Source: Amoebophrya sp. A120 (lineage: Eukaryota > Protista > Dinoflagellata). Taken from it: 64,000 nucleotides of DNA. The translations under genes and the position numbers were made by a program. Below are positions 987 to 64,000 of the stretch, one piece after another. The notes under the pieces are model-generated. The model worked only from the letters and a program-made list of their open reading frames with translations. It made no database searches and was not told where the DNA came from. Each line of letters opens with the position of its first letter. Within the stretch, counting starts at the first letter, position 1. Location of the stretch: assembly GCA_905178155.1 (NCBI GenBank), contig CAJINV010000014.1:1953888-2017887 (forward strand), given 5' to 3'.

Positions 987-3900
987 TCACAGGAGGAATA
1001 ATCCCGAACCGGAAGCGCCAATTTGTCCCTTTGCCAATTGTTTGTACATCCGGGTGATATCTGCTTGCTCCAGGTTAATGTCAACAAAACTCTGAGTACT
1101 AGTATCGTCTTCATCTTCATCGTCCTCCATATCCGTTTCCCCCTCGTCGGTAATCTCCTGCAGCTTCTCCTCCAAAACCTTTTCACAACCGCTTAAATCG
1201 ATCAGCTCCTGTTGGAAAAATTCCAAACTCACCGGGTTGTGGGCCCTGAAAATGTTGACCTCCGGCTTCTTGAACGGAATATGGAAGCGTCAGGATTGAA
1301 ATCCTCAAAGTTCAAATAATTTCTCATGCAGAAATTGCAAGGCATGAAGTGCCTCTCTTGCAGGGATTGCAAATGAGGCCGATTGTGAGCCTGTTTCGGG
1401 TTTGGAATAGAGCTGCCAAAGTAGCATGACAAAGGGCGCCTTCTGTCCCTAAACAGCATGACAGACTGGCTTTAGACGGTGCCGAAATTTGTCATGCGCC
1501 GCTGGGAAATTGGGCTTCCAGCTGGTATCCGTATCGCTTTTATGCATTACAAATAATTTCAACTTTGACGATTTCAATCCTGACGCTTCCATACGGAATG
1601 CCCCACTCGTAGTAGACGTCGTCGAAAGAGAGTTTGTCATCTTCGTCGTCTTGTAAAGCTACCTTCCACGGCTCCGGCATGAGTGCGAGGATAAGCTCTG
1701 AAGTGTTGGCAGAAGTTGAGGTCGTTTTCTTGTCGATGTAGTCCGCGGTGAGAATCTCAGCGAGCGTGTAGGAGTTTTGCTTCTGCGGCTTGGTCGTCGT
1801 CGGTGCTGCAGTATCGATAAAGTTCTTCTACTTTTTGAAGTGAAAGCAAATGCACAGCACTACAGGAACAGGATTGAGTTTGGACACGACAAAAATTCTC
1901 TGACTATATTACAGCTGCTTGTCGTTGTCGAGAGACGAAGCCATAGTATTAACTTACACAAGAAGACATATACGGCACCGGTTCTTGCACACATAGATTA
2001 TTATCTTACCTTTCGCTTCGTCGTCGTCTCCCTCGATCTCCATGATGACATCCCCATCTTCATCATTTTCCGCTGGTTTTTTAGGCCCCGCAGCGCTAGT
2101 AATATCAGAAGTTCCTGGCAGCTTATCTTTCCCGTTCTTCCCCAAGCGACGACCTCCTGTCTCCCAATCGTATTCATCTTCGCTATTCTGCCCCAGGTTG
2201 ATCGCCGTTAAAACTTGGCACATTTCCTCTCCAATTTCCCAGAAATCCAGATCCGCCCGCTCCGCTTGCGTCAGTCCTTCGTACTTCGCCTCCCTCTCCT
2301 TCTTTTTCGCCTCGATCTTCATCTTTTTCGCTTGCTTCTTCAGCGCCGCCTTCGACGGACGAAGATCGCGGCCTGCCCTGCTGTGGTCCCGTCGGCTTCG
2401 ATATTTCAATATCTTGCGGTCGTGGTCACGGTCGCTGTAATTGTACCGATCCCGACTATGATATCTCCCATCTCCACGACCTCTCCTGTCGTTGCTCCTC
2501 CACCCGCGCTCTTCTCTGCCACGGTCACGATCTCCGCCTCTATGTAAAAATTCGCGATCTCGGTCGCGGTCGCGGTCCCGATCGCGGTCACGATCGCGGT
2601 CACGATCGCGCTCCCTGTCCCGATCCCTGTCTCTGTCCCGATCTCTGCCGCGAAGATCCCGGTCTGCTCTATCACGATCCCTATCCCGGTCCCGGAGATC
2701 TCTATCCCGATCTCTGTCCCGAATATCTCTGTCCCGGTCTCTATCCCGCCGGTCTCGGTCGTAATCCCGGTCTCTATCTCGGTCGTAATCGCGGTCTCTA
2801 TCTCGGTCGTTGTAATCCCGCTCTCTATCTCGGTCGTTGTAGTCCCGGTCTCGGTCCCACCGATCGCGATCACGGTAGTTGTCCCGGTTGCCTCGGTCTC
2901 TTCTGTCCCTTTCCCGTTCCCTGTCGCGATCTCTCATGGGATGATCCCAGTCCCTGGGCCGGAAAATCAGTGGAGAGGCGTTCGGGGAACGAGCGCCGAG
3001 CTTGATACTGTTGGCTCCTAGCACGAAGCTTGGAGGAGCTTCCTGCTTTCTCAATGTCGGCAGTTGCACCGGAGGGGGCGCGACCGCACCTTTTTTCAAA
3101 GTCGGTAACTGGAACTTCGGTGCAGCTTTGGGCCTGATGTCCTTGATGTGAAGGGCTCCTGCGGCAGTTGTAGATGCAGACAAGAACTCCGGCACGACCA
3201 CCCGGGGGGGAGAGGCTGCTCTCATTTTGTTCGCCCCAGCCGACACCACCATCGGCGCTCGATCATTGTTCCGACCGTTGTCCCTGCTTCCTTTCGGTGA
3301 TGAAGGCCGTTTCAAACCACCAGCGGGAGGAACAGCTGGTCTTAATATTCTCGGGGATGAAGCTTCTTTTTCGACGCGAGAAGGTGACACTTGTTTCTCT
3401 TTCTTCAACCAAGGGCGCGGTATCGGTTCAGGGGAAGGCTCTTTCTTTCCACCCAGAAGTTCTTGTTTCGATTTGTCGTGCACCTGCGGTGCGATTTCAA
3501 CCGTCGGACGGTCATTGACGCTCTTCTGCAAGAAATCCGGTAGTGCTAATTTTCCGACAGCTTTACTCGACGCCCCATCGGTGCCAGGTTTGTACTTGTC
3601 CTCTCGCAGGACATTGTTCGGCAGCACCATCTCTGAAGAGCGAATCCCTGCAGCACGACCAGATGACTTGTTTTCCCGCCTGCGAAGGTAAGTTTCCTTA
3701 GCAACACCTCCTCCATCCCGATCATCTTCTCGGACCCTCCCGGCCCGTCTTCCTCGGGATTCACTTCTCCGTTTGTATCTGTAAGAGCGATCACCATCAC
3801 GATCACGATCTTCTGCATCAGAAGCAAAGGTCCGCTTCAGTGGAGCAAAATCACGCAGACAAAGACGGTCTTGTTTCTTATCGCCGTCCGGGCCCGGGCC

Positions 3901-6900
3901 CCTGTCGTCCACGCGACGAGCATGAATGCTTTTCCGTGGTTCAGCTTTAATATCCTCATGACCCTTGGCCGTCGTGTAGTTGTGGTTGCTTCTTCTACCA
4001 AACACCACGCGCTGTTCGCCGGAAGAAGGCGCAGCATCTTTTTCTTGTTCTAGTTTTTTATCATCTGTTCGCGGCGGAGCAGGCGGTCGAGGAGGTCGTG
4101 ATGGATGAACATCAACATTTTCCGCTTTCTCGTCCTCTTCACTGCAGTCTTCAAAAGTCAACTTGCTCGACGTCGTCTTCCCGGGAAGGCGGAGACAGCC
4201 CCACTTCGTTTCACGACCTTGCTGTCCTTCCACCGCTTTCGCCGCCCTTTGACTTTCTATCTTCGCAATGCGATCGCGTACGGAAACGGTTGCGCCCGGA
4301 ATCATATCATTGTTCTTCCTGTCTCGGTCACCTGGTGCACCAGAGTAAATGTTGTCCTTCTTCGCATCAAGGAGCGACTTGTGATTATCTTCGACTGGCT
4401 TCATATTCATCTCTTGGTCCCTCGTCTTCTTCCCGTCGGAAATTCTAGGTTGATCGAAACTTTTACCGCTAATACCTTTTCTTCCACTTCTACTGCTTTC
4501 GTCCTTCAAATCATCATCTTCCCTCGGACTTCTATCGCCGAAACCCGTCTCCTTGCCGAACTTATAGTCGCCCAGCGCGGGCAGCTCCGAATACTCGGAG
4601 TACTTATCAGACTCTGCTTCTTCTACTTCTCTTTGCCGATTATTCTGGTTGTTTTTCATCTTTTTACTTTCGACGTTGTCAACGACTAACTTTTGTTGCT
4701 TTTCTACCGCAGAACCTGAAGATGCCCGCCTCTTCCGGTCACGATCTTTAATATTATCCGGCGGATCCTCATGCTTGATTACCGCCTTACTAGTGATTTT
4801 TGATACTGCTCCTACTTCTCCTTTCTCCCGCAGAACTTTATTCTCTTTGAAACCCTGCGTCTGATCTTTTTGATCCGTTTTGTCGACCATACTATCGCTG
4901 TGTTCTTCTTCAACATTGTCGCTGTGTTCTTCTTCTTCTTCAACAGATTCCTCTACAGCCGAAGACGAAACCGCCCCGCTGCTGCTGCTCACCTGGGATT
5001 CGTCTTCGTCATCATCCGACGATACTGCTTCATCTTCGTCGTCGTTTTGGGCCGTCGTGTCCCAAAACTTTATCTCCGCAAGCCGTCGAGGATCGGGATG
5101 TATTGGTCGTGGTAGTTGTTGATGGAAGCGGCCCCGATCAGATTTCTTCTCCGATGAACGACGTCTACCGCGCATCGTCGTTTTTCCTGGTCGTTTTTTT
5201 TCTTCTCGTTTTTTTCTCGATGAACGCTGCTGCTCCAATTCATTTTCGTCGTCATCCTTATCGTCCTTATCAGGACTGGTAACGATCGGCTCCCCATAGG
5301 CAAAGTCGGAGTCGCTCTCACTTTCACTCTCTTCCGCTTCGTCGTTCGCAGCGTCTTTATTTCTTTGGGAGTTTAGTACTTTTTCTCTTTCTGGACGACG
5401 ACCTTTTTTATTATTTTTTCCATCTTCATCCTCCACATCTTCCATTTCAACGTCCCGGCTGTAGTTGCTTGTTCTTTTCGGTCTTTTCGAGCAAGGTCCT
5501 TTCGCTTTCTCTACTACAGACGTACGCCTAGTTTTCATCGCCCTCGCGGCCGTATCAACATTTTTATCTTGTTCCCCGGCCTCCTGCTCCTCGGACTTCT
5601 CGTCCTCCGAGTGAGCAGACGAGGACTCCTGTTCAAGAGCAGGCGAATCCTCGGGCAGCAACAAAGCTCCATTTCGACTGCGCGGCTGTGGTTGATGCGG
5701 GGGTCGGATCGGTAAGATTTTGACGCTTGGACTATTTCTGCCTTCTGGAGTTTTTTTCTGCTGCTGTTGCTCTTTTTTCGCGTTCTTCTTGTTCTTTGCG
5801 GTAGCTTCTCCTTCTTTTATTTTTTCCTCGTCCGAATCATGCTGAGGATTATAACTTTCGTTCGACCTACCAGACAGCGATGACTCAGAGTTGTCGTTTT
5901 CGGAGATGATCCGCCCGTTACGGAGGGTATGAAAGTTAAAACAGAGGCCGCTTATTCCCTTGGTATTCCACTGTATTGCGTCGTGTGTGTAGGAGTAGGT
6001 CTAGGTCGTGTGCGTGTTTTGTGTCTAGTACGAATGACAAAGCCATCAAATTCGAACTGCACTGGAGCAACTTTCTTTCGAAGATGACAAGGTGCAACAG
6101 AGATTCCTCAACAAGCGAAGCACTGCAAACTACCCAGGGACGAGCGGCCTTCAACATTCTACCGATCTCATACCGCGAGTTTGCCCCTTGGTAGTTCCGT
6201 GGCGGGCGCTGGGAAGCGGCGATGCGCTTTTCTACTGGCTCCTCTCCTGGCTCCTGGTCGTCCACTTCTTCATCGTGCGCTGCCTCTAATTCCGCCTCCT
6301 CAGAAGCGGCTTCGTCCTCGGAACCGGAAGGGCAAATGCAAGGAAAAGTAAAGCGCTTAAACTTCTTTTCAATGTCAACGCTAGAGCATATTCCGAATGC
6401 TGGGGCCGAGAAGATGAAAAATATCACACAAATACATGATTTTCTGATGTGGTTTTGAAACAAGATGTTGTGATGCACATTAAAACCCTTCACTCGTGCT
6501 TCGATTGGCCCTGCGGGAAGAAAAGCTAGCTGTTTTACTTGTCCTTCATCATCCTAAATTGCTGCATGCTTTCCTCTTCCTCTTCGTCCTCAGAGACGCT
6601 GCTTCGATATTCCGGACTGTAATCCCTCAAGGCTCCCGGGATGATCAGCATGGGCGCCGGGGGAGGAGCGGGAGGATCTCCTGCGCTGGAACTAGCCGCC
6701 TGAGCAGAAGAACCTCCACCAGGACATGCGTTCCGAAAATCGCGGTCTGCCTGATTGACATGGTGAGACGACTGCTGCTCTGGGCTGTTGATTCGGTAGT
6801 TGTCCCTGTTGTGCTCCTGCCGTTGTTGGGCTGCAAACACTTCGCTGCTGCTTTCCGGGGAGGACTGGAAGTACTTTTTATCATGACGGCCCTGCTGCTG

Positions 6901-7672
6901 CTCTAGCAAGCGTCTCCTGTTTTGCGTTGGCACAGGACGCGAACGACGATGCTCACGAAAATCGTTATCTTCCGACCGCTCCGGCGAGAGTTCGTAATCA
7001 TCCTCGCCGGAGGAGTGCTCGGAAGAAGGCAACGCGGCCCGGTCATCTTGATGTTGCAGCACTCCCGCCCTTGCAGGAAGAACTCCCGCACGACCGCCAC
7101 CACCCGGATCGTTCTGACCGCCGGGGCTGTTGCTCCGGCTGCTACTGCCGCCCAAAGCGCCACTTCGATGCGCAGCAGGGCCGGGGGCTGACCTGTTCAG
7201 ACCGGCAAACAGGCTATTGATGGCTTGGTGCCCGCCTTCCTGGTTGCGCACAAATTGCTTTTTGATTTGTTCTATCCTGTGCAAAAGTATCTGTATCGTG
7301 CGGCTCGTGCTACATTGAATATAGGAATTGCAATAGCTACTTATTTGCGGTCGTGCATGGCCACAAATCTTGTACGTACTTCACGCGCAAATCAGCATGA
7401 CGACTACCGCTGGTCCTTCTGAGCAAAACTTGTTCCATCTCCAATGCAATAGCTACTACAAGAACTACGATATTTTTGCAATGCATATCTTGCTGGTTCT
7501 GCGCAGACGAGAAGGTGGAAGAGGATGGCATGGGTAGTTTAAACGCATTCGCCGCGAACTTCGTGTCAAGCTTCTTCTTTTTCGGCTCAGGATGTGCATC
7601 TTCCGCATTGGACGGGGTGCCGTTCCGTCGACGGCTGCACGCCGACGATTCAGACGAGGAGCCGTCACCCAT
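987..7672 (-). CDS. Large low-complexity hypothetical protein with Arg-Asp (RD) repeat region (SR/RD-rich, possibly nuclear); multi-exon
   Basis: ORFs 7337-7720, 6535-7284, 5936-6493, 1954-5664 and 987-1232 join in frame after removing elements 7273-7487, 5928-6172 and 1280-1593 (+5 nt each) and a GT-AG intron at ~1807-2009. The junction at ~6333-6538 and the start codon are unresolved. Confidence 0.7.
1280..1593. mobile_element. Introner-like TIR element, family A
   Basis: TIR TATGGAAGCGTCAGGATTGAAATC...; TSD CGGAA (1275-1279/1594-1598); removal gives EWGIP|FKKPEV. Confidence 0.95.
2555..2935 (-). repeat. Coding RD/RE dipeptide repeat
   Basis: Translation DRDRDRERDR... inside ORF 1954-5664. 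Confidence 0.9.
5928..6172. mobile_element. Decayed introner-like element
   Basis: TATG...CATA ends, residual TIR (AGGCCGCT..TCCCT.GGTA), TSD lost; removal +5 nt gives ANSR|RNGRII in frame. Confidence 0.6.
7273..7487. mobile_element. Introner-like element, family C (aged)
   Basis: TATCCTGTGCAAAAGTATC...GATATTTTTGCAATGCATA; TSD TGTTC/TCTTG; removal gives NQQE|IKKQF. Confidence 0.8.
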
Positions 7673-10600
7673 TCGGTATGCAAGGAAAGAGAGGCAAGCT
7701 ATTTTTTCGAACAACTGCATTGTTGCTGTCCATGTGTGTAAAGATGGCCATGAATCATCTGTCCAATTTCAGATAGACCGGGGTGAGCAAGTTCCCTCGC
7801 TCTTAGACTTCTTTTCGCTTTTGCATAACCTCTAATCGTACTAGCTACAGCACCTCATCACAGTCGTCGTAGCAGCTTCCTTGTCGACTTGGCTGAAAAT
7901 TATCCAGGATTACCTTCACGAACAACAAAGACATGTCATCATTGGCGCATGCTCCTATCGGCTCCTTGCTTCGTGATGATGATCTATCGCCCCAACATTT
8001 CGAACATTTTTGATGTGCTTCTAGTTGTTGGAAAAGATTGGAGCTGCAAACTCCGCCTCTGTATGGGATTCTCTGGATAAGTGAAAAAACCCATCATCTT
8101 TTGGTGGTCGTGGGTCGCGTTTCGACGTTATGGACGCTGCGCTTCCAACATCTCGTGTTGTCTTTCCCCTCAGGGCCGCATTTCCGACAGAAAGGCAGTT
8201 GATAAGTCCTCTCGCAGGTCGCGACCCTCCTCCTCTTGTCGTTGTCTTTCCTTGCTGTACCTCCTCGACAGCCGAGGACTCCGTGGGGGAGCGGTTATTG
8301 AAAAGACAAGACTAGCTAAAGCGGCAACATTTCTGCAACCCTACAGTGTCAGAGAGGTAGATACTGATATCGCCTGAGAAAGAGGAACAACAGCGCTTCA
8401 GGAGATGAAAAACTGCTTTCATTGGAAAACTATTTTTACCCCGAATGCTGCAACAAAACACAGCTTCCGCTGCACCTGATTTTCAAAAGAAAACATATGC
8501 CATCAACATTTTGATTTTGAGCCTGTATGAAATACAACGCGACCTGTTCTGCATGCTGAAGCTTATTTTCACGGCTTGAGATTGAGTTCTGCTTTCAGAC
8601 GACTTGAAATGCCAAGTCACGTTCTTGCACACCATCAAAAGCATGCATCTTATCATGTTTTTATTGCAGCGGGCCGCCAGTCTTTTCCTTTTCGAAACGC
8701 TCATCACTGTCACTGAACTCGCCCTTTTTCGATCGGAGAAGGCCGGCGCGTTTAGGTGGCATCCTGCAACTCTACTGCGACTTGTTGAGTTGGAAAAGAA
8801 GCGAATCAGCTGCAGGCCAGCGCGACCAATTCGATCTTTAACGGCACCTCGTCGTACCAAACGCTCTACGCTAAGTATTTCCAGACGCGACCGTGCTGTA
8901 AAGAATGCCCGAGCAGCTCTCGACAGCTCGCCTGACAAAACCCCACTTTGATGGCGTGACGTGGTGGGCGGGGCACAAGAGTTCTACTTCTAATTCTTCG
9001 CTGCTTTCGACAAATTCATCTGTAGCTTTGTTGCCATCAATTTTTCCTCCATGATGCGGGAGAGCAGCAAAGTCCCGATCAAACTCAGTTGTCCTGGTGG
9101 TATGGGTAAACGCGGCTTCTTGTGGTCTTCGTGGTGGTTCGCTCCGCCAGAAAAATGTCATCAATGTGCTGCGCCGAAAGAAACGTGTAAAGACGGTCTC
9201 AGAAGCTATGGTCGTTGAGGTTGATGCGTGTCCTTGCGAGCTCCTCGTCACACGAAGAATTCAGGGTAACCGCACTACGTTTGTGCGCGCGTCCGAGGAT
9301 AAATTTTGGTTATCAACAATCGGAAATTGCATGTGTGAGCAGCGGGGAATCTTTTTCGTGTTCTACTTTACCCATTAGACGGACAAGCAACTTTGATCAA
9401 GCAGCAGATGAAGCGTAGAGAGAGATAGAGACACAGACAACACCCACTCTCGCTTCTTTACATACCACATCACTGAGGCTGTTGATATGATGGAGTAATA
9501 GATGTGGCGGCAACAAATTATCATATCTATGGCATCATCAATAAAATAAATGACTGAGACTGATCACGACACACAAGAGAATCTGTCATCGCTGCTGCAA
9601 CATCGGGGCTCGAACCAAGGGAACGGTTAAGGATCGACGAGTATATCGATACATACAAGCTACCCGGCGGGCGGCAGGCGACGGCAGGCGAGCACCCACG
9701 GAAAATGCGGCGACGAAGAGATAACCGCGCTGAGCAGCGCTCACTCCACGCGCGCCATAAGCACAAGCGCGAAAATATATATGTATCAATTGAACAAGAG
9801 ACGGCCGCGGCGCCGCGCCATTGCTTGGCTGGGCAGACGGGGCTCGGGCGTCTGGCTACGTACTGTCTGACACACAGGCACCATACGCGCGGCGGCCCGG
9901 GCCATTCGCCCATACGTAGGCCCGAGCGCCGCGCCCACGCCTCCCTACGTGGGCGCCTTTCCACGCCCGGCAAGATCAAAACACCAAACCGGACGCAGCC
10001 GCCGCGGCCGCCGCCGGCCCAATTGGCCGGCGGCACTGAAATCGGCGCGCCTGACTGCCCTGATGCAAACAACCGGGGGGGGGGGGCGCGGAAGGATACC
10101 ACCCGCCCGGCGGACGCGCGCCCGCGCAGGCAGCAGGGCCATGGGTGCCGGCCCAGCCTACCAGCCAAGGAATGGCGCCCCTCGCCCCCCCCGGCGCCCA
10201 AACAGGCCTCAAAGCAGGGGCCCACCCAAACAGCAAGGGCGCGCCACTTACAAAGAACGAAGCCCAAGGCAAGGAAGCACCCGGGCCACCGGCAAAAGAG
10301 AAACACCAAAACCGCGCGCCACGCGCGCGCGCCGTCTTCGCTTATCTGCGCGCGGGTTCTCGGACCCCCATCCCCCTTCGTTTTTAACATCCGCAGAGCG
10401 CCCCGGCGCGCGCGCGCCTCCCGACCTTCGGCAAGCTCTTGGGGGTAGAGAATCATAGCCGCGCCGGGGGGCCGCGCGCAAACTTTGCGGACTCATCCCC
10501 GCGAAATGTTAACCAGTCACCTGGGCAGATCGCGCGCGTGGCGTTTGTTTCTGACCAATCAAGACGGCGCGTCAGGCGGACCACGTACCACCTACCGGGG

Positions 10601-11204
10601 CCAAATTCTCCGAGAGGTCCCGCGTTTCGCTTTCCGCGCCGACGCCTCCAAGGCGGGGCGGCTTCAGGCCGGTTCGGAGGCGCGCGGAGTGCGGCCCTGC
10701 ATACGACTCCGCGCGCGCTGATATGGGCCCAGGTCGACTCCTCTACGGAGCCGCTTGGGAGCTTGGAGCAGGTCTGTCGAGATTGAAGCCGCCCCCTGAA
10801 GCAGTTTTATCGAGATCGAAGTGGGAAAGTCAGCCGCTATTGCCAAAAGCGCCCGCGCCTCCCTCCCCAGGCGCTTGCAGGCCGCGACGGTGGGCCCACC
10901 GACAAGAGGCGGCGCCGCTCTGCGGAGATTCAGACTGTTTGTAGAAAAATAGTCACGACAGGCGAAACATGTATGCGCGGCGTGCTTCATCTTCTTTCGA
11001 AATTCATGGAGCGAACACGTCGAATGTTGATGGTTTGCGCGTCTTGCGCTGCGCTAGAGATCAGAAATCTACGTGCTCATCCTGCAGCGCGCTTTGTGTT
11101 CATCAGTCGCAGTGCGACAACTTATCAAGTTCGCGTCGTCCTCACCTCACTTCGTTGCCAGTGCCTGTTCGACATTTTTCTCGCTCACGAAACAACAAGC
11201 GCCA

Positions 11205-14831: not shown

Positions 14832-19075
<4,244 letters not shown>

Positions 19076-23700: not shown

Positions 23701-24161
23701 CTTGCAATACAAATTTTTGCTATTCACGATTGGAAATCTGTGATGCTGATAGATGCAAGAAGGCGGATGTTTCATGCATACAAATGAAAAGGTTTGCAAT
23801 GCAAATGCCCCCAAATTCGGGGGTGGGGGCATTTTTCACTTTGATAACTGCCCGGTGTGCTCTATCATCTGGCCATTGGCACCGTTACCGTTGGCGCCAT
23901 TGCCATTCCCGTTCGGCGCCTCCCCGCCATTGCCGCCGGATTCGGCGGGAGCTGGTTTTTTTTTTTAATTTTGGAAATGTTTCGCATTTAGAAAAGAAAA
24001 GCTGGCTCATGCCGTCCTCTATGTGTGCCGAGGAGATGTTGAAGCAAAGCGTGTAGTTGATAGTTGTTGTATCTCGTGTAGTTTTTAGTCCTGTTGTAGA
24101 AAGCCCAAACATGATATACATTCGTACCTGTTGAGCTCTTAGCCTTGCTCGCGTCGGCCAT
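20746..24161 (-). CDS. Single-domain (6TM) voltage-gated Na+/Ca2+ channel with TLESW filter and C-terminal EF-hands
   Basis: S2-S3 YFLDPWNILDY, S4 FRMLRMLRVVRQIRLLR (~22740-22795), pore VFQ|IITLESWSGSIVRPI (22225-22269), S6 LLNVIIGVIVE, EF-hands DASSTGELNFEQF and DVDNSQSLSVDEF; several GT-AG introns plus three introners. Confidence 0.9.
21945..22224. mobile_element. Decayed introner-like element
   Basis: Residual TIR (GAAACATG.T.(C)TTC); no in-frame GT-AG solution found; removal +5 nt gives IVRPI|MKQDV. Confidence 0.65.
23065..23275. mobile_element. Introner-like element, family E
   Basis: TATC..poly-A-C(A/G)TTGT TIR; TSD GCAGC; 211 bp and similar to 40000-40210; removal gives LQLL|QWGYFL. 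Confidence 0.95.
23533..23846. mobile_element. Introner-like element, family D-like
   Basis: TIR TAT.A.AGTGAAAAATGCCCCC; TSD ACTGC; removal gives HTGQ|FRSVFQQM. Confidence 0.95.
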
Positions 24162-25159: not shown

Positions 25160-28100
25160 TCAAAACTCTTCCTCTGCTAGTTCTGAGTCCGAGCGGCCAC
25201 GCTCCGGGTCATTTCCATTTGTTTTTGAAACTTTATTTTCTTTTTCGGCCGCAAAGCCGTTGTTCTTGTTTGCGAAAGCACTCGGCACCTTCATCGGCAC
25301 GGTGGGTAAGCGGGAGACGTCGAATGTGGTCGCAGAAGTAGAAACAGGGTCATTTTTCGCCGGTGTTGTAGTCCTCGTCGTTCCCGGAATGTCGCCAAAA
25401 ACCTTTCCGGAAACCCGCACCGGCTGGATTTTCGCTAGAGCCTTCTCCCTCTCCTTCGTGGTAGAAACCACAGTACTCGGCGGAACCGCGTCGGACGAGT
25501 AGTAGGAAATATTGTCGTCAAAATCCACTTCTTTCTCCGACGAAGACAGGACTGCACCGTCCATTTTCATCACGTCTGCTGGATGAAGAACACTGGTACC
25601 AGGAGCGACTCGTTCGCTTATTTTGCTCGTATCCCGACTGGAGGTTAAGTCCCCGCGAGCAGGACCCGATGAGCTATCCTTTGACTCGTCTGTGGAGCTT
25701 TTCTTGGAAAGAAACACAGACTCTAACTCCACTTCCGAGGAGTGGGCGGACTTCGGACTGTGTTTTTGCTTGATGCCCCTGGGATCGTCGATTTCCACCT
25801 TTTTCTTGTTCCTAGATGTTGCCCCCGCCGCGCCAGCTGCTTTCTTCAAAGACGCCTCCGTGCCGTCGAAGTCCGTTTCATCATTGTCGACATTGTCATC
25901 GAACTGCACAAGATTCGTGTTCAACATCATCCCCGCCGACAGTCCACGGCCACCACCCCCGCTACTCTTTTTCCCGAATTCGATCCGAATTTGCGCCAAT
26001 AGTCTCCGTTTTTTCTTCCGGTCCACTAAGAGACTGAACACGTTTTTCTCAAACTGTTCGACCGGGATTCCGGGGAGGCGCCGGTACATTTTCACTTCGT
26101 TATCAAATGCAAATACGTCTGGGCCTGGAAGATTGCCACGTTTGTCATGCATATTTCACATGACGCATGACGCCTGTAATGCATGCCCCAGCATCACAGA
26201 TTTCCTCAGGGCTTCCTGATGCTTATTTCGCATGAGAAATTGAAATGTCCTCCCCGCGTAGCGCAAAGTGGACTCCTCTTGCTAGTCATCCAATACAGAC
26301 TTTTTTGGAATCCAAACACCGCATCACAAGTTACCACCTTCTAGACCCAGACATATTTGCAATACATATTCGTCGTGCGGGAGCAAGTGCCCGGCGGAAA
26401 CGTGGTTCTCCGCCTCCGCGATCGCCAAGTCATCGTCGTCGTCTAAAATCCGGCGAATCGGCTGCAGTTTCGCGGAAGTGGGTTGCGAAGATGTTGCGGC
26501 TGCACTGCTGGAATTCTTGTTGTTTCTTCGATTCCACACGTCCTTCGTCGCTCTCATCTTTCTCGTGGCGGACCGGAGAATCGCCGTCAGGACGGACTTA
26601 TGCATTGCAAAAGCATCGCACTAGTACAAAGCGCATGACAAATTTTTCGTAAAGGAAAAATCAAATTTGTCGTGCAGAACAAGCTAAAAAAGCAGATCTG
26701 CCATGCAAGACCTGCATTTATACGAGTGCGATGCCTTTGCACAGGATAGGATTCCCTAGTAGTGCTGGGGTCTTGATGATGTTCTGCTGTTGAAGATGTT
26801 CCTCCAGAACCGCCCGACAGATAGAAACTGGTGTTCTCGTCGCTGTCAAAACTGCCGTCGAAATGCGTTCGCCAGAGCCCGATGAGACTCAGTTTCGCAG
26901 TTCTGCTCTTATCCGGCGTTTCCCGAAACTTCGTTTTCCACTTTCGATACGCGCCCGTGTCGTCCCGCGTCGACTTCGCGTTGCTTCTCCCCACGCGGTG
27001 CGAGAGGTTGCGCATCTGCGCACTGGCGTACTCGACGAAGCAGCGGAGGAGGACGGCGCGGTAGATTTCCGGGAGGTTAGTGGCGAACTGGTGTTCAGAG
27101 GATGAACTCGACGAGGACGCAGCACGAGACGAGCCACGACCTGTGGTCATGCCGGAGCTCATTCCCAAATGCGAAAAGTACTCGCAGACCCTCCTGATTG
27201 CCAAAAACACCACTTCCTTCCCCGTGCGGTTCAATCGCGTGACGTCTAAGACATCGGATTGGACGCTGTAGTCTCCCGTCCTGTCCTGGTCCACGTTCGG
27301 GTAATAATAGATGAGATGATGAGAGGAAACAAATCTCCGTCTGTGAAGATGTTGTTGACTTTGATGTCCTCGTCCGTAGGTGCTCTCGTGGACGAAGAGG
27401 AATTCCCTGCAACGCTCGACAAAATCGCCAAAGAGAAGCGAAAAAACACCCGTCCCGTGCAGCAACTTCAAATCATCAGCAGTCAGATCTCCCGCGTCAC
27501 GAGCTTTATTCCGCCTCTTCATTTTCGCCTTGAGCGCCAGGTGTCTCCGGCGCGCAACTTCGCGCTTCTGCTTTTTCGTTTCATCTTTTTCTGGATCTGC
27601 TGCTCCTTCCCCGTGGTCTCTATCGGAGGTGGTGTTGCTGGTTTTTGATCGCTGGCTTTTGCTTGTGTCGGATGAGGAGGAAGAATCATCCGCGGACAAG
27701 GCGTCGTTAATATCGTTTTCTTCGTCAAAATTGCCGAAGTCACCCTCGTCCTCAGATGAAGAGGAGGATGAAAAGGCTGCACCAGCAGCCAGGTCCCGAT
27801 CTCGCAGACACGCAGAGAACAAGGTGGACAAGACAAACCGCAGCACGTTTTTCAGACCGGTGAAAACTGCGGAAATGGGTTCCTCCGAAATAGGAAGTAA
27901 GAAGTCTAGACCGCAGGCCTGCAGGATGAAGGTCCCGACTAATTTCCAAATTGTGGTGAGGACGAAAATAGTGTGCAAAACGAGGAGGATGTCGATTGGG
28001 AGAAAATAATCTGCGTCGGATTGATTTGACGGGGAGGTGGTCGTAGAAGAATTGTTTTTGATTCTTCCTTCGTACCACACGCCGATCAGGCTCGTGGCAA

Positions 28101-57000: not shown

Positions 57001-60000
57001 CTTCTCCAACAACCGCTGAAACTTAATACCGTCCTTCACGCCCTCGACGGTGTCCTATGGCAGTGCAAAACTTCGTCCCCTCCCCCTCATTTGTATTGCA
57101 TGAACAGCAATACAAACACCAGGACACGTGGTGGAGCCTGTGCATGACAAATTCACGCGCCTACTGTAGTATTGTTTGGGCTTCCGGAATGATCTGTCAT
57201 GCAAATAGTGCCACAGCAGGGACGAAGGACTAGACTTGGATTCGGTAGTTTGCGTGACAAATGAGGGGGAGCAGGGGGAGTTGTGCACTGTCATATGTCC
57301 CCCGCCTCCTTGTGCAGGTCCTCGATCAGGCTGTCGCGCAACAGGTCGGGTCGCAGAAACTTCTCGTATTTCGCGCTCTTCATGATTCGGTACCGCTGGT
57401 TATGGACGTGTCAGGATCGAAATCGACAAAACCGAAGAACTTGTGATGCATAAAATGTAAGGCACTGAAGGCCTGTATTGGGGGGCAGGCAAATGAGGCC
57501 GATTGCAAGCCTGTTTAGGGGTATGCAATGCGCTGCCAGAGTAGCATGACAGGAGCAGTCTTCTTTGTCCAAACAGCATGAAAGACTGGATTTGGGTGCT
57601 CCCGAAATTTGTCATGCGCCACTCGGAAACTGAGTGTGAGGCCCCAACTGGTATCGATTTTATGCATCGCAACTTTTTTGATTTTGTCAATTTCGATTCT
57701 GACACTTCCATACTGGTTGGACAGCTTCTTCACCTTCATCGCCTTGTTGAACATGATTTGGTGCATGAAGGCCAGCTCCGCCTCCCCCTCCCCCTTGATG
57801 GCGACGTATTGGTCTATGTCCCGCTCGTCCTCTTCCCCCTCCACCATGCTTTTCGACGTTTGCCGGGTGTGTTTCCAGGCGTTTTCGATCTCCTCCGTCA
57901 CGTCCGTTTCCACCATCATGGCGATGTCGGGCTTCTCTTCGAGCAAGTGCGCCATGCGGTTTCGCTCGTTGCGGTACACGCTCGCGGCTTCGAAGTACAT
58001 CGCGTCCGCGATTCGTTTCCAGATCGATCCGCACTCCTGCGGCTTCAGTTTCCAATCCGAATTGTCGACCTGCCGCTCCAGCACGTCTTCGGCCAGCAAG
58101 CGAGTATGAGAGTTGTACACAACTCCCCCTCCCCCTCATTTGTATGGCATGAACAGCAACACAAGCAACAGCGGAAAAGAGGCTTTCGCATGACAAATCT
58201 GCGTGCAGATCGTAGTACAGTTTGAGGTTCCAAAATTTGTCATCCTAGCAGTGCTTACGAGCACGGTGTGAATTTGGTACTTTGCATTACAAATGAGGGG
58301 GAGGGGGAGCTGTGCACTCCCATACCGGGCCTGGAAGATGTCGAACAGCCCCTTGTTGGTGCCCCGTTTCTCCGCCGCCAGAACCTCCCCAGCGGAGGGT
58401 TTTCGCCCCAGTTTCGCCTTCAGGCGCTCCGTGAGCAAACGGTCCTGGTACTCCGTTTCGAGCGTGTGCACCTTCGCAGGTTTTGTGTACTCCTTGACCA
58501 GGACATACTCCATGGCCCGATGCAGCTCGCTCATCAGGTAGCTCTTGGGAAGCTCCACGTCGCCGCGGATTAGGTCGCCGCCGATGTACTTGTTGTGTTT
58601 GAACTCCTCGGGGGTGTCCTCCGTCTCGGTCAGCGCCGCCTGTTGGTACTCCAAATCCGCAGCCAGGTGCTCCGTTATGTGGCCCGCCGCCATGCGCACG
58701 TCCATGCCCGCACGCTGATACAGCCGGCTCTCCCCGATATTGCCGCCGCAGGCAGAGTGCTGGTCGGTCTGAACCATAATGACGTACTCCGCCACCTTCT
58801 TCCACTCCACCAGCGCGATTTCGCGGAGCAAGTTGGTGGCGGTCCACCGGTCGCGGGTATTCAAATTCGACTGCGGGTTTAGAAACATGTCGTCGCGCAG
58901 TTCCTGCTCCGGGGTTGTCTCCCACGAATAGTTGTCGGCGTAGTGCGCGAGCCAGTCCTGACTGAAGTCTTTGTGCTGCTCCATAAATTTCAAAATAAGC
59001 TCGCCCTCGACCTCCTCCGCCTCTTGGACCCTCTCCGCTGGGACTTTACTCTCTCTATGCCGTGCGACTAGCCGCATCTCCTCGCGCTCGGTTGTTCTGC
59101 TCTTCAACTCCTTCATTGCGGAGGTCTTTTTACCTTCCTCGCCCTGTTTTGTTTCTTGTACTTGTTCCTCTTCCACAGTGTGTTGAAGCAGAGACGAACT
59201 GGTGCTAGTTTGTGCTCCTGCTGGGGGAGAAGATTCATGCTCATCTTGTTCCAGCACATGATCAGGACTCCGACTTCTTGTTGATTTCCTGGCATCAGCA
59301 TCTGAAGACGCCGCTCGACGCTGACGCCCCCGCTTCCGCTTCTGCCTCATGGCTTTTTGGAGGAGAACCTTCTCCAGCAGCTGAGACTGAAGCTCTTTTT
59401 TCTTTGCCGTTTTTTGTTCTGCGAATGATGATGAAGATGATGAGCTAGCTACTGATAGCGACCTCTCCTGGGAAGTAGTTCTGCTTCTACTTTTGCTCGT
59501 CCCGCCCGTTCTTCGCGCCAATTTTTGATGATTTCTTGCCGTTTCAGTTTTAGTTTTTGCCTCCCCCACCTGCAGCTGGGAGGACGTGCTGGACGTTGCT
59601 CCCGCTTGCATATTTGTGTCTACTTCTAGTACGCTGTCACCAAGGGAGGTACTACTCCCATCTCCGCGGCCAGAAAGTGCGTCGTTTTCGGTACTGCTCC
59701 TGGCACCGGAAGATTCTGATGACAGCTTTCCCAGTGGTTCGGCTAGTTCCTGAGATGAACCTTGGACACCTGGCGCAGAAGAAGTAGCGGCAACCGCTGG
59801 CAGCTTGTGTGCTGTCGTAGATGTTGACATCGTGTTGGTCTTCACGTCAGTTGCGCTCCTACCTGATGATGTTACTTTTTCTACGGGTTCCGGAATCTCC
59901 TTCGCGGCCCCTGCTTCATCTGGTACTGCTCCTCCTACGAGAGATGTAGTTGACAGCTCTTCTTGTTCTTTCACCTGCAGCATGCTCGCAGCACTGGAGC

Positions 60001-63000
60001 TGCTAGAAGTTGCGCTACTCGCAGCAGCAGCGGCTGCTGCTTGTGCTGCGCCGTTGGCTTGATTCTCCAGATCCTCTTCGTGCTGGCGTAGCAGCTCTTC
60101 GCACTCCGTGTCGCCCGGTTCGCATTCTTTCGTGATGACGTTTCCATCTTCGTCGACGTCAAGGTCCGCAAAGTGGTAGTAGAGGTCGCCGCCCTCTTAT
60201 CGCAAGAAAAAAATGTTTCACTGTGAACCTGTGACGCAGAGAACGAAACACCAAAGTGTTTGTCTTGCTACACCTGCAACGCAATGGATTTTTAAGCGTG
60301 TTTTCCCTTGGTAAACGCGCATGGCGAACTTTCTGTATCATGTGTAGCACACTTGTGATGCAGATCTTGCAAAACCATCACAGTGAAACAGTTTTTTCGT
60401 GGGATACCTCTTCTAGCGCTTCCAACTGTTCCCGCATCTGCTGGATCTCCAGCTCGATATCCCGTTCTCGCACCTTGTCGCTCAAGTGCTCCGCCTTCAG
60501 GATTTGTTTTTGCAGAATTCCCTCGGTCTTCAGATGGAACGCGTAGTTATACCGCATCTCGTCTCCGTAGATGTCCTCCATGATGTCGCGAAATTTCTCC
60601 GCGCGGAACCGCCTGGCCCGAATGTACTCGTTGATCCTCTCCTCGGCGGCCAGGAGCGGGATCTTGGGATGAATGTTCCCGTCCACCCCCGACACGCCGA
60701 GCTTGTCCGTGGTGAGCTTCGACGTACTTAAATGGATGTCCTTATGGATGTGTCAGGATCGAAACCCTCAAAGTTGAAAGAGTTTGTCATGCATAAATCC
60801 GATACCAGTCGGAAGCCCTTTTATCAAGCGGCGCATGACAAATTTTCCTATCACCGGGATCCAGTTTGTAATGCTGTTTGGTCCTCACTGAGGACTGCTT
60901 TTGTCATGCTACTTTAGCAGCTCTATTTCAAACCCTAAACAGGCTCACAATCGGCCTCACTTGCCATCCTGGCAAGACAGGCACTTCATGCCTTGCATTT
61001 TATGCATGGCAAATCAAAATCATTTCAACTTTGTCGATTTCAAACCTGACGCTTCCATAGTCCTTGCATGTGCCCCAGGCGGCATCTTCCAGGTCCTCCA
61101 GGGTGGCGGAAGTCAGGTCCTGCAAAAAGTTCGCGTTGTGGTCCGTGATCTTGCTGCCCACTTCCCGTTGTCGCAGTTCGTTGATGTTCCAGGTGGCTAG
61201 GCGCTCCTTCTTCTTCCGCTCCTCGTCGATGTCCGACAAAATTTGCCCTTCGTTCCGCATCTCGTATCGGTACCCGAGCACCGTGTCCTGTCCCGGCTGC
61301 GGCAAACACTCGTCCGGTGTGAGGAACATGAGAAACCGCAAGTGCTCCCGGATTTTGGTTGGCAACACCATGCCCACCGCGGCAAAGTAGTTGCGCGTCG
61401 CGTCCGCTTCCCGCGCCGCCTGGGTGCGGCCCTCGCGCCGGGTGCTGGTTATGCTGCCACCCGCATCCCCACCGCGCTCGTACCGGTCTACCTTGGTGTA
61501 TGACCGGAGCGGGTCCAACAGAATGAACGCGTCCCCGAACATCGTGTCCCGGTACGATGTGGTGGAGTCCTTGCCGCCGAAGAGGCGTCCGCTCCAACTG
61601 TTTGCGCCGCTGTGGGCCAGCAGGTCTGCCCGCAGTCCCAGAGCGTTGGTGGTCTTGGGGAACTCAGATTCCTCCACATCCTCATCCAACAGACCAGCGT
61701 CGTTGCTCGCAGGCAATAGTTTATTTTTCGCAGCTGCTCTTGTTCCTGTTCTGGCTCTTGCTTCTTGCTTCGCCTCCTGCTGCTCCGACGTCGTAGAAGC
61801 TGCAACTGCGTGCCGTCGTGCCACTCGTCCGCCCTCGCCTACCTTCATCATACCGGAAGCAAGACCTTCCCTTGCCGTTTGATGCTTTTCCATATTTTTT
61901 TCCATTTGTTCCTCGGTCCGCTCGCCCGTCTTGGACATTTGGAGAAACGATGAAGCAGAGGCAGCAGTAGAACTACTCGACGCGGCGCTGGAAGACGACG
62001 AGAGAAGTCCACTCCCTTGCTCAGCCTTGGTCGCTTCCGCCTTCATTTTTCGCTGTTCCTTGTACTGTTTTACGAGTTCCATCCGCTTGTCCTTCGGTAT
62101 CTGAGTGACCCAATACTTTTCGAGTTCCTCTTTTCGTTTCTCCACCTCGTCGGTGGCAAGTTGACAGAATTTGTCGTTCTCCAACTCGTATGAACTGCAA
62201 AAGTATCGTACTCGTACAAATGCATATACAAATTTATTTCTCAGCATCATCATCATCATCATCATCATCATCATTGAGAAATAAAATTTGTAATGCGGAT
62301 TTACCTTAATAAGACAAAGATTTGTAATGTAAGACTTGCATTATATACGAATACGATACTTTTGCACAGGATAACTCGCGTCCGTTTTCGAAAGAGCAGA
62401 CCTCTGCCCGCTTGTCGAGCCTCTCTTGCAAAGGAGCGACTCCTATCAAATGCAAAAATGTCTGGGTCTGGAAGAGTTGGAACCTGTGATGCAAACTCTG
62501 GAACACGCAAAAACTTTTGTTGCGTGAGCGCCAAAAGCTGTCCATTTCTTGGTCCGCAAGTAGGAAGTTTCTGATGCGGGACAGGCATCATGAGGCGTGC
62601 TCAAAACCTGTGATGCTTTTGCCTGCATCAGACGCCATTTGCGTGATCCGAAATATGCATGACAAATCTCGTAATCTTCCAGACCCAGACATTTTTGCAT
62701 TTGATAACTCCTGACTCCGGTGCTCCCGGGTCGGCCTGTAGCCACTCTTCTGGCGGCCTCAAAGCCTCCGCTTCCAACGCGTCCATTTTCGCGCTACCAT
62801 CCTCGGCGTTTTCAGAATTTATGCATTGCAATTATCATGTAGTTGTTACATGGGTGGTCTACAACTTTTAGAAGTCTATGTTGACATTCGCATTTTTGCA
62901 ATAGAGTGGCCCGCCCTTGTTGTAAGTACGGTAGAACATCACCAGCATCAGAAGTTTCGCGGGCCGCCTATTCTTGCTGATTCATACCTGAAGGAGCGCG

Positions 63001-64000
63001 TGTATAATGACAAAGAAGTGCCATCAACCTCCGATATTAAAAGAATTCTTGATGGCCATGCATCAATTATCGCATCCATGCGTGACAGCTCTAGGTCTTG
63101 TTGTCCTTCAAATCTTGTCGCGTCACGAATTGTATTGTATCCAGACCCGGACGACAACTACATGTGTGCAATGCATAGCGTTGGGATCCTCGCCATTCAG
63201 GTGCTTCACGTCTTTCAGCGCTTTCTCCTCCCACTTCTCCATGATTTGTTGCGTCTCCAGCGCTATCCTGTGCAAAAGTATCGCACTCGTATATCATGCA
63301 GTCACGAATTACAAATCTTTCTCTTAAACTTAAGTTAAATCAGCATTACAAATTCTATCTCTCATGCTGAGGAAATTTCAATTTGTAATGCATTTATACG
63401 AGTACGACAATTTTGCAATTCATAAGCGCGACCGGGTCCATCACGGAATCTTGGGCGTAATAGGTCGACAGCAGCATGGGCAGTGCCTCCTTGGATTTTT
63501 CCTTGACCTGCTCTAACAGGTCGTCCTCCTGATCTCTTTCCCACCCCGTATCGTTAGAAAAAATCGGCCCTCCCCATATCGACAAGGCACACCTCAGAAA
63601 ATTTGTCATGGTGATTTGTAGCCACAAATCGCATCTGTGATGCAAGAAAGCAACGCCACAGGCTCCGCCCAATGGTGCAGGCGGTTTGTAATGCTGTTGG
63701 GCCTGCTACGGCATAGACGTTCCTCATGCTAAGTGCCTAGGCCAAAACCTCTCGACTCCGGCACGATATGGGCCTGCAGTCCTCTACTGCAAGACAAATC
63801 TGACTTGTGGACGCAAATCCGGCATCACAAATTTCGTTTCGATGTGGGGAGGGGGGATTTTTCCTTGTGATACCCCGCTTGCCAGAACCACGAGGCCCGG
63901 GTTTCCTCGGCGTCGATCGAGGCCAGCAGCTGCCGTTCCGAGGCCATCGCAATCTCCCCGGCACTATGAACTGCAAAAGTATCGTACTCGTATAAATGCA
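54064..64000 (-). CDS. Very large hypothetical protein (>2050 aa, 5' end outside window) with one C-proximal TM helix, interrupted by 16 introners
   Basis: Removing 15 complete elements +5 nt each from 54064-63959 leaves 6177 nt (divisible by 3) and each junction translates in frame; TM-like LLFCVLFAIGLWLALVSVL. Confidence 0.85.
54426..54583. mobile_element. Introner-like element, family C
   Basis: TSD TCTAC; removal gives WCSR|SRTAIN. Confidence 0.95.
54679..54837. mobile_element. Introner-like element, family G
   Basis: TIR core AATTTCCCGC.CA.G.ACAAA; TSD GGAGA/GGACA; removal gives LALVS|VLRTCF. Confidence 0.85.
55913..56064. mobile_element. Introner-like element, family C
   Basis: TSD AGCCC/AGTCC; removal gives DEED|YYHDDD. 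Confidence 0.9.
56122..56403. mobile_element. Introner-like element, family H (D-like ends)
   Basis: TIR TATCCTG.GT.AAAACGTCCCCACCCCATAGT; TSD GCGCT; removal gives IKQR|VGFVIP. Confidence 0.95.
56476..56779. mobile_element. Introner-like element, family A2
   Basis: TSD TTGGA; removal gives MQSN|LIDMQV. Confidence 0.95.
57056..57295. mobile_element. Introner-like element, family I
   Basis: TIR TATG.CAGTGCA.AACT...CTCCCCCTCATTTGT; TSD TGTCC; removal gives EAGD|TVEGVK. Confidence 0.95.
57401..57712. mobile_element. Introner-like element, family A
   Basis: TSD CTGGT; removal gives LSNQ|RYRIMK. Confidence 0.95.
58105..58324. mobile_element. Introner-like element, family I
   Basis: TIR core CTCCCCCTCCCCCTCATTTGTA; TSD GCGAG/CCGGG; removal gives FQAR|LLAEDV. 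Confidence 0.9.
60198..60406. mobile_element. Introner-like element, family J (GT-AG compatible)
   Basis: TIR TATC.CA.GAAAAAA.TGTTTCACTGTGA; TSD CCTCT; removal gives ALEE|GGDLYY. Confidence 0.95.
60743..61059. mobile_element. Introner-like element, family A
   Basis: TSD GTCCT; removal gives TCKD|IHLSTS. Confidence 0.95.
62189..62373. mobile_element. Introner-like element, family C, with (CAT)10 expansion
   Basis: TSD ACTCG; removal gives NGRE|LENDKF. Confidence 0.95.
62444..62706. mobile_element. Introner-like element, family B
   Basis: Perfect TIR TATCAAATGCAAAAATGTCTGGGTCTGGAAGA; TSD ACTCC; removal gives ESGV|APLQER. Confidence 0.95.
62820..63177. mobile_element. Aged (B-like) introner-like element
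   Basis: TIR TATGCATTGCA...CATGTAGTTG; TSD GAATT/GCGTT; removal gives EDPNA|ENAED. Confidence 0.8.
63264..63424. mobile_element. Introner-like element, family C
   Basis: TSD AGCGC; reverse orientation relative to 62189 and 55913; removal gives PVAL|ETQQI. Confidence 0.95.
63549..63872. mobile_element. Introner-like element, family D
   Basis: TSD CCCCG; reverse orientation relative to 16352-16673; removal gives WQAG|WERDQE. Confidence 0.95.
63965..64000. mobile_element. Family C element, truncated by window edge
   Basis: TATGAACTGCAAAAGTATCGTACTCGTATAAATGCA. Confidence 0.85.

Follow-up and report, generated by a model that had tools for sequence, protein, structure and literature searches.

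More than 60% of Amoebophrya introns lack GT-AG ends, and their mode of removal has been open since 2021 (PMC7789003). That paper (Farhat et al. 2021) left the position of the intron borders unknown, lists nothing but NT among the top nine non-canonical donors of strain A120 in its Table S4, and had already proposed for the A120 introners a hairpin that joins the exon ends. Spliceosomal introners used in both orientations have been described (Huff 2016, as cited in PMC10228655), Polarella glacialis has two-way classes (2, 3, 6, 7, 8 and 10; 10.1101/2020.10.14.339549), and the non-canonical introns of Fritillaria borealis have been attributed to an altered U2 spliceosome (PMC11282704; 10.1101/2025.08.15.670264). 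Prior publications cover the elements, the hairpin and, in general terms, two-way introners. Here, we analyse a stretch of 64,000 nucleotides (the window) in which such elements are missing from transcript contigs whichever way round they lie, and in which the joins fit one offset cut, which makes it likely that the mirrored ends carry signals acting at the RNA level.

Elements, host genes and orientation

The elements inside the genes of the window are the published MITE-like introners of Amoebophrya sp. A120, and three open reading frames are 100% identical to database proteins named for this strain. All 19 copies named by an earlier sequence-only reading begin with TAT. In 18 of them the far end reads ATA and a 5-bp direct repeat flanks the element; only at 55913 does this repeat contain a mismatch (4 of 5). 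The copy at 16698 closes with GTA, and its repeat is intact. Perfect 5-bp repeats accompany 31 TAT..ATA pairs in the window, whereas 200 local shuffles yield 4.8±2.2 (maximum 15). As in A120 introners, the terminal inverted repeat (TIR) starts with TAT, about seven variable bases come next and an A-run follows (232-251 of 266 copies have A at arm positions 11-13; family A is the exception), the 3-5 nt border direct repeats are represented by 5-bp repeats (without mismatch in 215 of the 266 called copies), and the repeated families are absent from RNA as non-canonical introns. Like MITEs, the elements are short, with inverted repeats and a target duplication and without coding capacity; a transposase would not fit into 148-337 nt (5th-95th percentile), and Farhat et al. 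2021 (PMC7789003) report no candidate for a cognate autonomous transposase in A120.

At loci outside the window, 333 distinct elements were sampled, with the host strand called for 266 copies and 67 without a confident host strand kept out of the main test. The end-mutation test used 301 copies, and window counts of splice dinucleotides and codon score used 34 elements. The host genes are the following.

54067..63959, minus: open reading frame of at least 2058 codons, 15 elements, families A and C both ways round
46906..51932, minus: open reading frame of 963 codons, 5 elements and 3 GT-AG introns
14841..19075, minus: thioredoxin reductase gene, 5 elements, identical to A120 protein P0001
33743..40883, minus: gene model P0122, elements 34591, 36381, 38309, 39659 and 40000

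That all host genes lie on the minus strand, as the sequence-only reading had stated, is borne out by database proteins, GT-AG introns, a restored reading frame and codon score alike. The proteins P0001, P0121 and P0122 map to this strand, a transcript contig across 47809-49559 leaves out three CT..AC introns (minus-strand GT-AG), and the frame of at least 2058 codons opens only once 15 elements between 54426 and 63872 are excised. Codon score favours minus for 34/34 elements and is marginal only at 34591, where gene model P0122 settles the strand. The last gap of P0121 (2553-2853) is either a repeat-region artefact or an in-frame skip.

The named copies, all in minus-strand genes, are these.

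1280..1593: family A, orientation 1; repeat CGGAA; minus reading frame restored
57401..57712: family A, orientation 1; skipped with one repeat, joint 57395>57713
18533..18840: family A2, orientation 1; in the thioredoxin reductase gene
56476..56779: family A2, orientation 1; skipped, joint 56470>56780
34591..34900: family A, orientation 2; within P0122
47809..48124: family A, orientation 2; skipped, joint 47803>48125
48190..48484: family A, orientation 2; skipped, joint 48184>48485
49559..49864: family A2, orientation 2; skipped, joint 49553>49865
60743..61059: family A, orientation 2; shares its reading frame with 57401 and 56476; skip inferred from depth
16698..16961: family B, orientation 1; transcript 5' end TAC instead of TAT
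17390..17747: family B, orientation 1; longer, internal insertion
26101..26368: family B, orientation 1
36381..36645: family B, orientation 2; within P0122
62444..62706: family B, orientation 2
55913..56064: family C; repeats AGCCC/AGTCC; cut offset 0-2 allowed
62189..62373: family C; oriented as 55913
63264..63424: family C; opposite to 55913 and 62189, same reading frame
16352..16673: family D, orientation 1
63549..63872: family D, orientation 2

Pairwise alignment, a check proposed with the original claim and run on the interiors only, returned the claimed orientation for 19/19 copies. Opposite-strand scores far exceeded same-strand scores for 18533/49559 in A2 (290 vs 24), 1280/60743 in A (233 vs 26), 16698/36381 in B (127 vs 17), 62189/63264 in C (90 vs 14) and 16352/63549 in D (201 vs 42). 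Families A and A2 form a single superfamily with four copies one way and five the other. Orientation relative to the host is about even across the sample (88 vs 81), a count that leaves aside the 97 of 266 strand-called copies for which no reference family was assignable. Tree propagation of orientation in family B was inconsistent at 57 of 1180 edges and misplaced 36381, and direct alignment was used instead.

Removal, cut position and directional end constraints

Removal in both orientations, the core of the sequence-only reading, holds: RNA-like joints drop the element and one 5-nt repeat either way. In two RNA-like runs, opposite-orientation joints were found in family A (47809 and 48190 vs 57401) and in A2 (49559 vs 56476), and these contigs carry 0 other letters. 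The element interior, as had been implied, is dispensable. Contig joints document removal for 6/19 copies (47809, 48190, 49559, 55913, 56476 and 57401), database gene models for 6/19 (16352, 16698, 17390, 18533, 34591 and 36381), restored reading frames only for 6/19 (1280, 26101, 62189, 62444, 63264 and 63549), and depth arithmetic for 60743 (52.4 = 72.8 x 331/460). The two runs (X3 and X4), analysed in the form of contigs, come from one study, and their RNA status is a guess; they behave as transcripts, skipping GT-AG introns and showing depth 0 at 52101-52560. Raw RNA runs X9 and X10 gave matches to element ends only (90-99%) and none to exons.

Together with 55913, the following elements and old introns have decayed repeats that restrict where the cut can lie, counted as an offset from the TAT.

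48872..49138: decayed element; joint 48866>49139; offset 0-1
50894..51220: decayed B-like element, 5' end TAC; joint 50889>51222 (piece lengths); offset 1-4
54679..54837: decayed element; contig joint; offset 0-3
58105..58324: element, repeats GCGAG/CCGGG; contig joint; offset 1-3
7273..7487: C-like element; gene model P0121; offset 0-1
38305..38615, minus: non-canonical intron G-TAT..ATA-CACG; gene model P0122; offset at least 1
7673..8080, minus: old non-canonical intron T-TAT..ATA-CCGA; direct repeat gone; unique offset 1
6331..6557, minus: old non-canonical intron T-TAG..ATT-TGCC; unique offset 1
5924..6173, minus: old non-canonical intron G-TAT..ATA-CCCT; offset 0-1
8292..8697, minus: old non-canonical intron T-TTC..ATA-ACCG, no A+3; offset -1 to 3
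46048..46426, minus: old non-canonical intron C-TAT..ATA-AAAG; offset at most 1, judged by the lengths of contig pieces, the open frame and the GT-AG intron next to it

All of these junctions (12/12) are compatible with a single cut, exon|N-TAT…ATA-NNNN|exon (offset 1): five contig joints intersect there, six gene-model junctions fit it, two of them uniquely, and one inference from piece lengths agrees. Database gene models rather than reads supply half of this evidence, and a single strand of a single contig bears all the junctions. The old introns keep the register after loss of the direct repeat. The mirror register (offset 4) is excluded by 10/12 junctions, and the cut therefore follows the transcript or its strand, not the element. 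For the element at 62820, the reading frame alone gives no register information. In the literature that we searched, there is no earlier report of a single register.

The ends are also constrained directionally. Among the 301 copies, variants at triplet positions 1, 2 and 3 number 0, 2 and 13 in the 5' arm and 8, 4 and 2 in the 3' arm (Fisher p 9e-5); U+2 has 0 variants against 8 at its mirror base, and A-7 has 2 against 13. Four subsets were tried, and all show this asymmetry (p 7e-5 to 0.02); it is common to the families and to both orientations, and persists when the 67 copies without a confident host strand are added. Such transcript-directional tolerance of end mutations likewise had no earlier report in the literature searched. 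Both this asymmetric tolerance and the offset of the cut, which lies 1 nt ahead of the repeat and 4 nt beyond it, show the signals to be directional. Two copies, both of locus L004, have lost A-7 within a long open reading frame. At the +4/-7 pair, stem-breaking C·A outnumbers wobble U·G; the +2/-5 pair shows 7 U·G wobbles and no C·A. A preference for G+5 was not seen (51 vs 65, p 0.23).

The canonical donors of the window (n=12) have T+2 in 12/12 and A+3 in 10/12, with +4 variable; the same introns have A at -7 in 7/12 and at -8 in 8/12 over a background of 0.34, a post hoc and weak signal. The window elements show 5' GT in 9/34 and 3' AG in 5/34, and the canonical U2 combination of a GT/GC donor with an AG acceptor does not describe them. 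In 242 target repeats, AG is not in excess (22 vs 18 expected), G+1 is at most slightly so (0.35 vs 0.31), and AGG is not enriched; a proto-splice-site bias of the AG|G type was rejected on these counts. C or G at -1 is frequent in the window (28/34), yet reaches only 0.62 vs a background of 0.575 in the 242 repeats.

What removes the elements

We lean towards a relaxed spliceosome that removes the introners from pre-mRNA, reading signals in the inverted repeats with the hairpin assisting. U+2 and A+3 would be the core of a GUA donor with +1 set free, A-7 would act as the branch adenosine, the 3' cut would be measured 4 nt beyond AUA rather than located by AG, and the long hairpin may unite the ends, a task that normally falls to cross-intron definition. 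With one triplet present on both arms, the signals would be identical in either orientation. The sequence-only reading had argued from the two orientations to non-spliceosomal removal; this step fails, since inverted repeats give the same 5' and 3' terminal sequence either way, and two-way spliceosomal introners have been published.

Element joints and GT-AG skips occur in the same transcript contig (47809-49559), in keeping with a spliceosome, and 83 of 89 spliceosomal proteins are reported present (PMC7789003). The agent is itself deduced, and the lariat and branch point are predictions. The proposed branch adenosine at -7 is predicted to pair with U+4 in most hairpins, which is awkward, and the +2/-5 asymmetry fits stem pairing equally well. 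The known spliceosome requires both G+1 and a 3' AG for docking of the 3' site; the absence of both speaks against a spliceosomal reading. Further points against it are the failure to detect U1 snRNA in A120, the loss of A-7 in the two L004 copies, the missing A+3 at 8292-8697 and the lack of a G+5 preference.

Neither G+1 nor AG would be required by a non-spliceosomal, euglenid-like RNA endonuclease and ligase, a serious alternative to which we give a smaller share of belief. It would bind the closed stem with its UAU/AUA end, cut 1 nt and 4 nt outside it, join the exons and release a circle or a linear intron. The staggered geometry resembles that reported for euglenids (+4..+6 with -8..-6, circles released), U1 snRNA was not detected in A120 (PMC7789003), and directional base preferences could come from a protein too. 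Pairing of +2..+4 with -5..-7 is predicted in 9/12 removed elements, and a remnant of arm pairing persists in 3/4 old introns, which indicates that the stem matters. Against this reading, the 3/12 elements without predicted terminal pairing are removed precisely, and the invariant U+2 and the free +4 are matched in the canonical donors of the same organism. Nor is G·U in excess of A·C, whether over positions 4-24 of the arms (212 vs 211 in 263 of 301 copies, the 38 poorly paired ones dropped) or in the window (72 vs 59, 37 vs 34, 13 vs 23), and a candidate enzyme was not identified in this analysis. That a second, spliceosome-independent mRNA splicing machine recognises the hairpin by its UAU/AUA closure, with cuts placed 1 nt and 4 nt beyond, is a tentative proposition, held with slightly more reserve still.

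Conventional signals in each orientation (own donor, branch point and acceptor, used by the standard spliceosome) were what the sequence-only reading had named as evidence against itself, and the junctions largely rule them out. Family A arms do have CTGAC at a distance of about 15-19 nt to the 3' cut, most arms supply a short T-run, and P. glacialis provides an example of canonical use in both directions (10.1101/2020.10.14.339549); the joints, however, remove exactly the element plus 5 nt, mostly with no GT..AG placement in the slide, the target duplications lack AG or AGG enrichment, and orientation is even in A120 whereas all two-way classes of P. glacialis are biased. We regard this explanation as very improbable.

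Excision from DNA, of ciliate-IES or transposase type with transcripts made from edited copies, would suit the transposon anatomy and the loss of one repeat copy expected of precise excision, and is still harder to credit given that GT-AG introns are removed in the same transcript contig, that the mirror register is excluded at 10/12 junctions and that DNA-like contigs keep the elements. Unbranched contigs of run X1 (depth 21-30) reach 24-177 nt into elements and pass straight through 48872 and 50894, all with 0 differences, so that removal at the DNA level is unlikely and absence from a somatic DNA copy, the mark of a ciliate-type IES, is not seen. The library type of X1 is not on record, rare variants are lost from its contigs, and rare excision may occur; repeat copies swamped its joint table, from which no junctions were taken. 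Of the TIR-guided removal first suggested, what stands is that the TIRs carry information and that an RNA stem is plausible as a helper, while DNA-level recognition is disfavoured.

Implications and comparison with known systems

The single register provides an annotation rule for strain A120 and, together with U+2 and A-7, predicts the lariat branch position, the circle junction sequence and the bases to mutate. If the relaxed spliceosome is the agent, the near-universal G+1 and 3' AG have been given up; if it is not, a second mRNA splicing system exists. A hairpin machine, if true, would make any insertion invisible in mRNA whatever its target or orientation, would account for some 30,000 new introns, and would represent a portable, sequence-free module for precise RNA excision.

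The closest system is that of the A120 introners of Farhat et al. 2021 (PMC7789003), which share the organism, the TAT start with A-run and the 5-bp repeats; element orientation, single register and directional end constraints are not reported in the portion of its text cited here. The introners of P. glacialis and Aureococcus anophagefferens are likewise non-autonomous, make target duplications and serve as introns in either orientation, but they take G(T/C/A) donors and AG acceptors from element or target, neither of which A120 needs, and they are orientation-biased whereas A120 elements are about 50:50. The nonconventional introns of euglenids, as described in the cited parts of PMC11282704 and PMC11170887, resemble those of A120 in terminal pairing, a longer unpaired 3' end, target-duplication-like repeats and the lack of GT-AG. 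They differ in pairing +4..+6 with -8..-6, in favouring pyrimidine|purine junctions and in releasing circles, whereas A120 pairs +2..+4 with -7..-5, keeps U+2 invariant and leaves the junction bases free. Finally, the introns of Fritillaria borealis (PMC11282704; 10.1101/2025.08.15.670264) are, as in A120, MITE-derived with splice sites in the inverted repeats, but preferred AG-AC/AG-AT ends are kept there, while in A120 position +1 and the last four bases are free.

Elements and host genes

Three open reading frames (ORFs) in the window are 100% identical to database proteins named Amoebophrya sp. A120, and the next relatives of the thioredoxin reductase include strain A25 (74% identity). The elements match the introners that Farhat et al. 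(2021, PMC7789003) reported from A120, as described in the available parts of that paper, in TAT start, A-run, direct repeats (3-5 nt there) and a hairpin suggested to link exon ends; the elements themselves are an already known system. TAT…ATA ends with a perfect flanking 5-bp repeat form 31 pairs in the window versus 4.8±2.2 in shuffles (n=200). Scan and homology, contig joints and gene models together gave 35 elements, beyond which lie six older non-canonical introns and one copy truncated at the window end.

The sequence-only reading placed the same families both ways round in genes of one strand. Interior-only alignments bear this out for 19/19 named copies, and the transcript contig, ORFs and gene models agree that all hosts are on the minus strand. 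Families A and A2 are a single superfamily, with four copies in one direction and five in the other. One ORF (54067-63959, >=2058 codons), in which family A and family C elements each occur both ways round, is open only once 15 elements, with one repeat each, are excised. Additionally, a family B motif search of metagenome contigs gave at least 144 stretches, with flanks taken for 80. Their exons lack a match to the window (the sole match is the truncated element at its end), and their elements resemble those of the window at 70-92%. We called 333 distinct elements there, 266 with a confident host strand (ORF plus codon score); a reference family could be assigned to 169 of these, of which 88 run one way relative to the transcript and 81 the other, and no family deviates from even (smallest p 0.07).

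Counting from the 5' (+) or 3' (-) cut, arm position 13 is A at +14, mirrored by T at -17, in families that are otherwise unrelated (31 and 33 of 34 copies; 247 and 249 of 266); this pair may be a shared transposase site. Element 62189 contains an expanded (CAT)n microsatellite (62235-62283), and a C-like element of 358 nt with mismatched repeats GAATT/GCGTT lies at 62820-63177. The end of gene model P0121 (2409-2933) is an Arg/Asp repeat region with a model gap of ~300 nt lacking intron-like ends, and GC-rich intergenic stretches (9500-11000, 30000-31100) hold long spurious ORFs on both strands.

Removal from RNA

Among the joints listed (15 of 18) for RNA-like contigs of one study (X3, X4), element plus 5 nt is missing at 47809, 48190 and 49559 (orientation one) and at 56476 and 57401 (opposite orientation), and the contigs contain no other letters. 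Three GT-AG introns are also missing from the contig spanning the first three. X4 depth bins agree with skipping of 60198 (43.1 observed, 43.05 expected) and 60743 (52.4, 52.4). Further, P0001 (thioredoxin reductase) and P0122, database annotations of uncertain independence from the assembly, agree residue for residue with the spliced model over nine elements (16352, 16698, 17165, 17390, 18533, 34591, 36381, 39659, 40000). Contig joints and gene models uphold removal with the element either way round.

Recognition at the DNA level, which the sequence-only reading had entertained, is disfavoured by the DNA-like run X1 (library type not on record). Its depth is ~28-33 in most non-repeat bins, in exons, introns and spacers alike, and its contigs extend 24-177 nt into elements and cross 48872 and 50894 completely, all with 0 differences. 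An abundant excised form would interrupt these contigs at element borders. DNA excision is poorly supported and highly improbable as the explanation; rare excision may occur.

Run X9 is raw RNA from a related strain; there, hundreds of reads pass from an A2-like element end into a single foreign flank. These loose ends (450 and 94; 49807-49864 and 56476-56589) point to an abundant unspliced copy at a different locus. Transcript contigs continue ~1.4 kb, intronless, past the long-ORF stop (52596-54067), a long 3' UTR or read-through.

Position of the cut and directional ends

The available parts of the 2021 paper (PMC7789003) call the introner border unknown. Perfect repeats conceal the cut, whereas mismatched repeats make it readable as an offset, the count of 5' repeat-copy bases leaving with the intron.

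Offsets at readable junctions, all in minus-strand genes
Element 48872: 0-1, contig joint
Element 58105: 1-3, contig joint
Element 50894: 1-4, contig, from piece lengths
Element 54679: 0-3, contig joint
Element 55913: 0-2, contig joint
Element 7273: 0-1, gene model
Intron 38305-38615: 1-6, gene model
Intron 7673-8080: exactly 1, gene model
Intron 6331-6557: exactly 1, gene model
Intron 5924-6173: 0-1, gene model
Intron 8292-8697: -1 to 3, gene model
Intron 46048-46426: <=1, piece lengths, open frame and neighbouring GT-AG intron (which this candidate alone, among 18, yields)

Offset 1, exon/N-TAT…ATA-NNNN/exon, is compatible with 12/12 junctions, all on one strand of one contig, and the mirror offset 4 is ruled out by 10/12. 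With orientation about even, a cut tied to the element would exclude offset 4 this often with an estimated probability of ~0.002. In the parts of Farhat et al. (PMC7789003) available, 9/9 top A120 non-canonical motifs begin NT (Table S4), in agreement with an offset-1 cut, and repeats lie 1-5 nt away from splice sites (Fig. S23 legend). Old introns are spliced without direct repeats, so identical repeats are dispensable. Four such non-canonical introns (5924-8697; 227-408 nt) have lost the direct repeat, yet their geometry is still N-TAT..ATA-NNNN; decay of introners may have produced many of the 'singleton' non-canonical introns.

End variants were counted in 301 copies (266 outside, 35 in the window) with a detector that tolerated one departure, equally on either arm. 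At triplet positions 1/2/3, the transcript 5' arm departs from TAT 0/2/13 times and the 3' arm 8/4/2 times (Fisher p 9e-5; p 0.008 at position 1 and 0.007 at position 3). The variants, most with perfect direct repeats, come from many families and both orientations, and the asymmetry persists in stricter subsets (p 0.002-0.02). Because the asymmetries are opposite at positions 1 and 3, a general strand bias is unable to explain them. By these counts U+2 is invariant, A+3 and A-7 almost invariant, and +4 and -5 less constrained. A-7 is lost (3' end GTA) in two copies only, which share one long ORF (L004:721-971 and L004:4042-4375, at an outside locus).

The 12 canonical introns placed have T+2 in 12/12 and A+3 in 10/12; their +4 is free, and A occurs at -7 in 7/12 and at -8 in 8/12, a weak, post hoc pattern. 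These GT-AG introns (14984-50813) have donors mostly of the form GTA-N-T (T at +5 in 8/12) and A/C-rich 3' ends with A at -7 or -8 and no long pyrimidine tract.

Agent of removal and known systems

The step from both orientations to a non-spliceosomal agent is unsound: mirrored ends show the transcript identical termini either way, so two-way insertion proves only that the element interior is dispensable. Register, end constraints and RNA-level removal are the parts established; for roles and agent, we lean slightly towards a relaxed spliceosome, in which U+2/A+3 would act as donor core, A-7 would serve as branch point, the 3' cut would be measured 4 nt beyond AUA and the hairpin would link the intron ends. 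The elements show no preference for G+1, AG or G+5, which counts against a plain spliceosome. A euglenid-like endonuclease/ligase (PMC11282704, PMC11170887, both available in part) is a serious, if less probable, rival. Conventional sites in each orientation are poorly supported and very unlikely.

The stem is probably helpful to removal: +2..+4 are predicted to pair with -7..-5 in 9/12 removed elements, and arm complementarity is partly retained in 3/4 old introns without a direct repeat. However, 55913, 54679 and 50894 are predicted unpaired there (probability <=0.17) yet are removed in register, and the arms show no excess of G·U (212) over A·C (211), so the stem is not established as sole determinant.

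The feature is real and lies within a known system. We did not find A120 element orientation, single register or directional constraints stated in the literature searched, including the available parts of PMC7789003, PMC12130899, PMC9860276, PMC11282704, PMC11453091 and 10.1101/2025.08.15.670264; figures, the Gozashti 2025 datasets, the final Roy 2023 paper and subscription journals may bear on these points. In the main text of Farhat et al. (PMC7789003), the available mentions of 'orientation' (three of four) concern gene clusters. The two added rules, register and directional bases, make it possible to test directly how splicing proceeds. Spliceosomal introners that work both ways round have been reported from P. 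glacialis (preprint 10.1101/2020.10.14.339549) and by Huff 2016 as cited in a review (PMC10228655); as far as the accessible parts of these sources go, those introners retain G-donors and AG and show an orientation bias, whereas the A120 elements differ in both respects.
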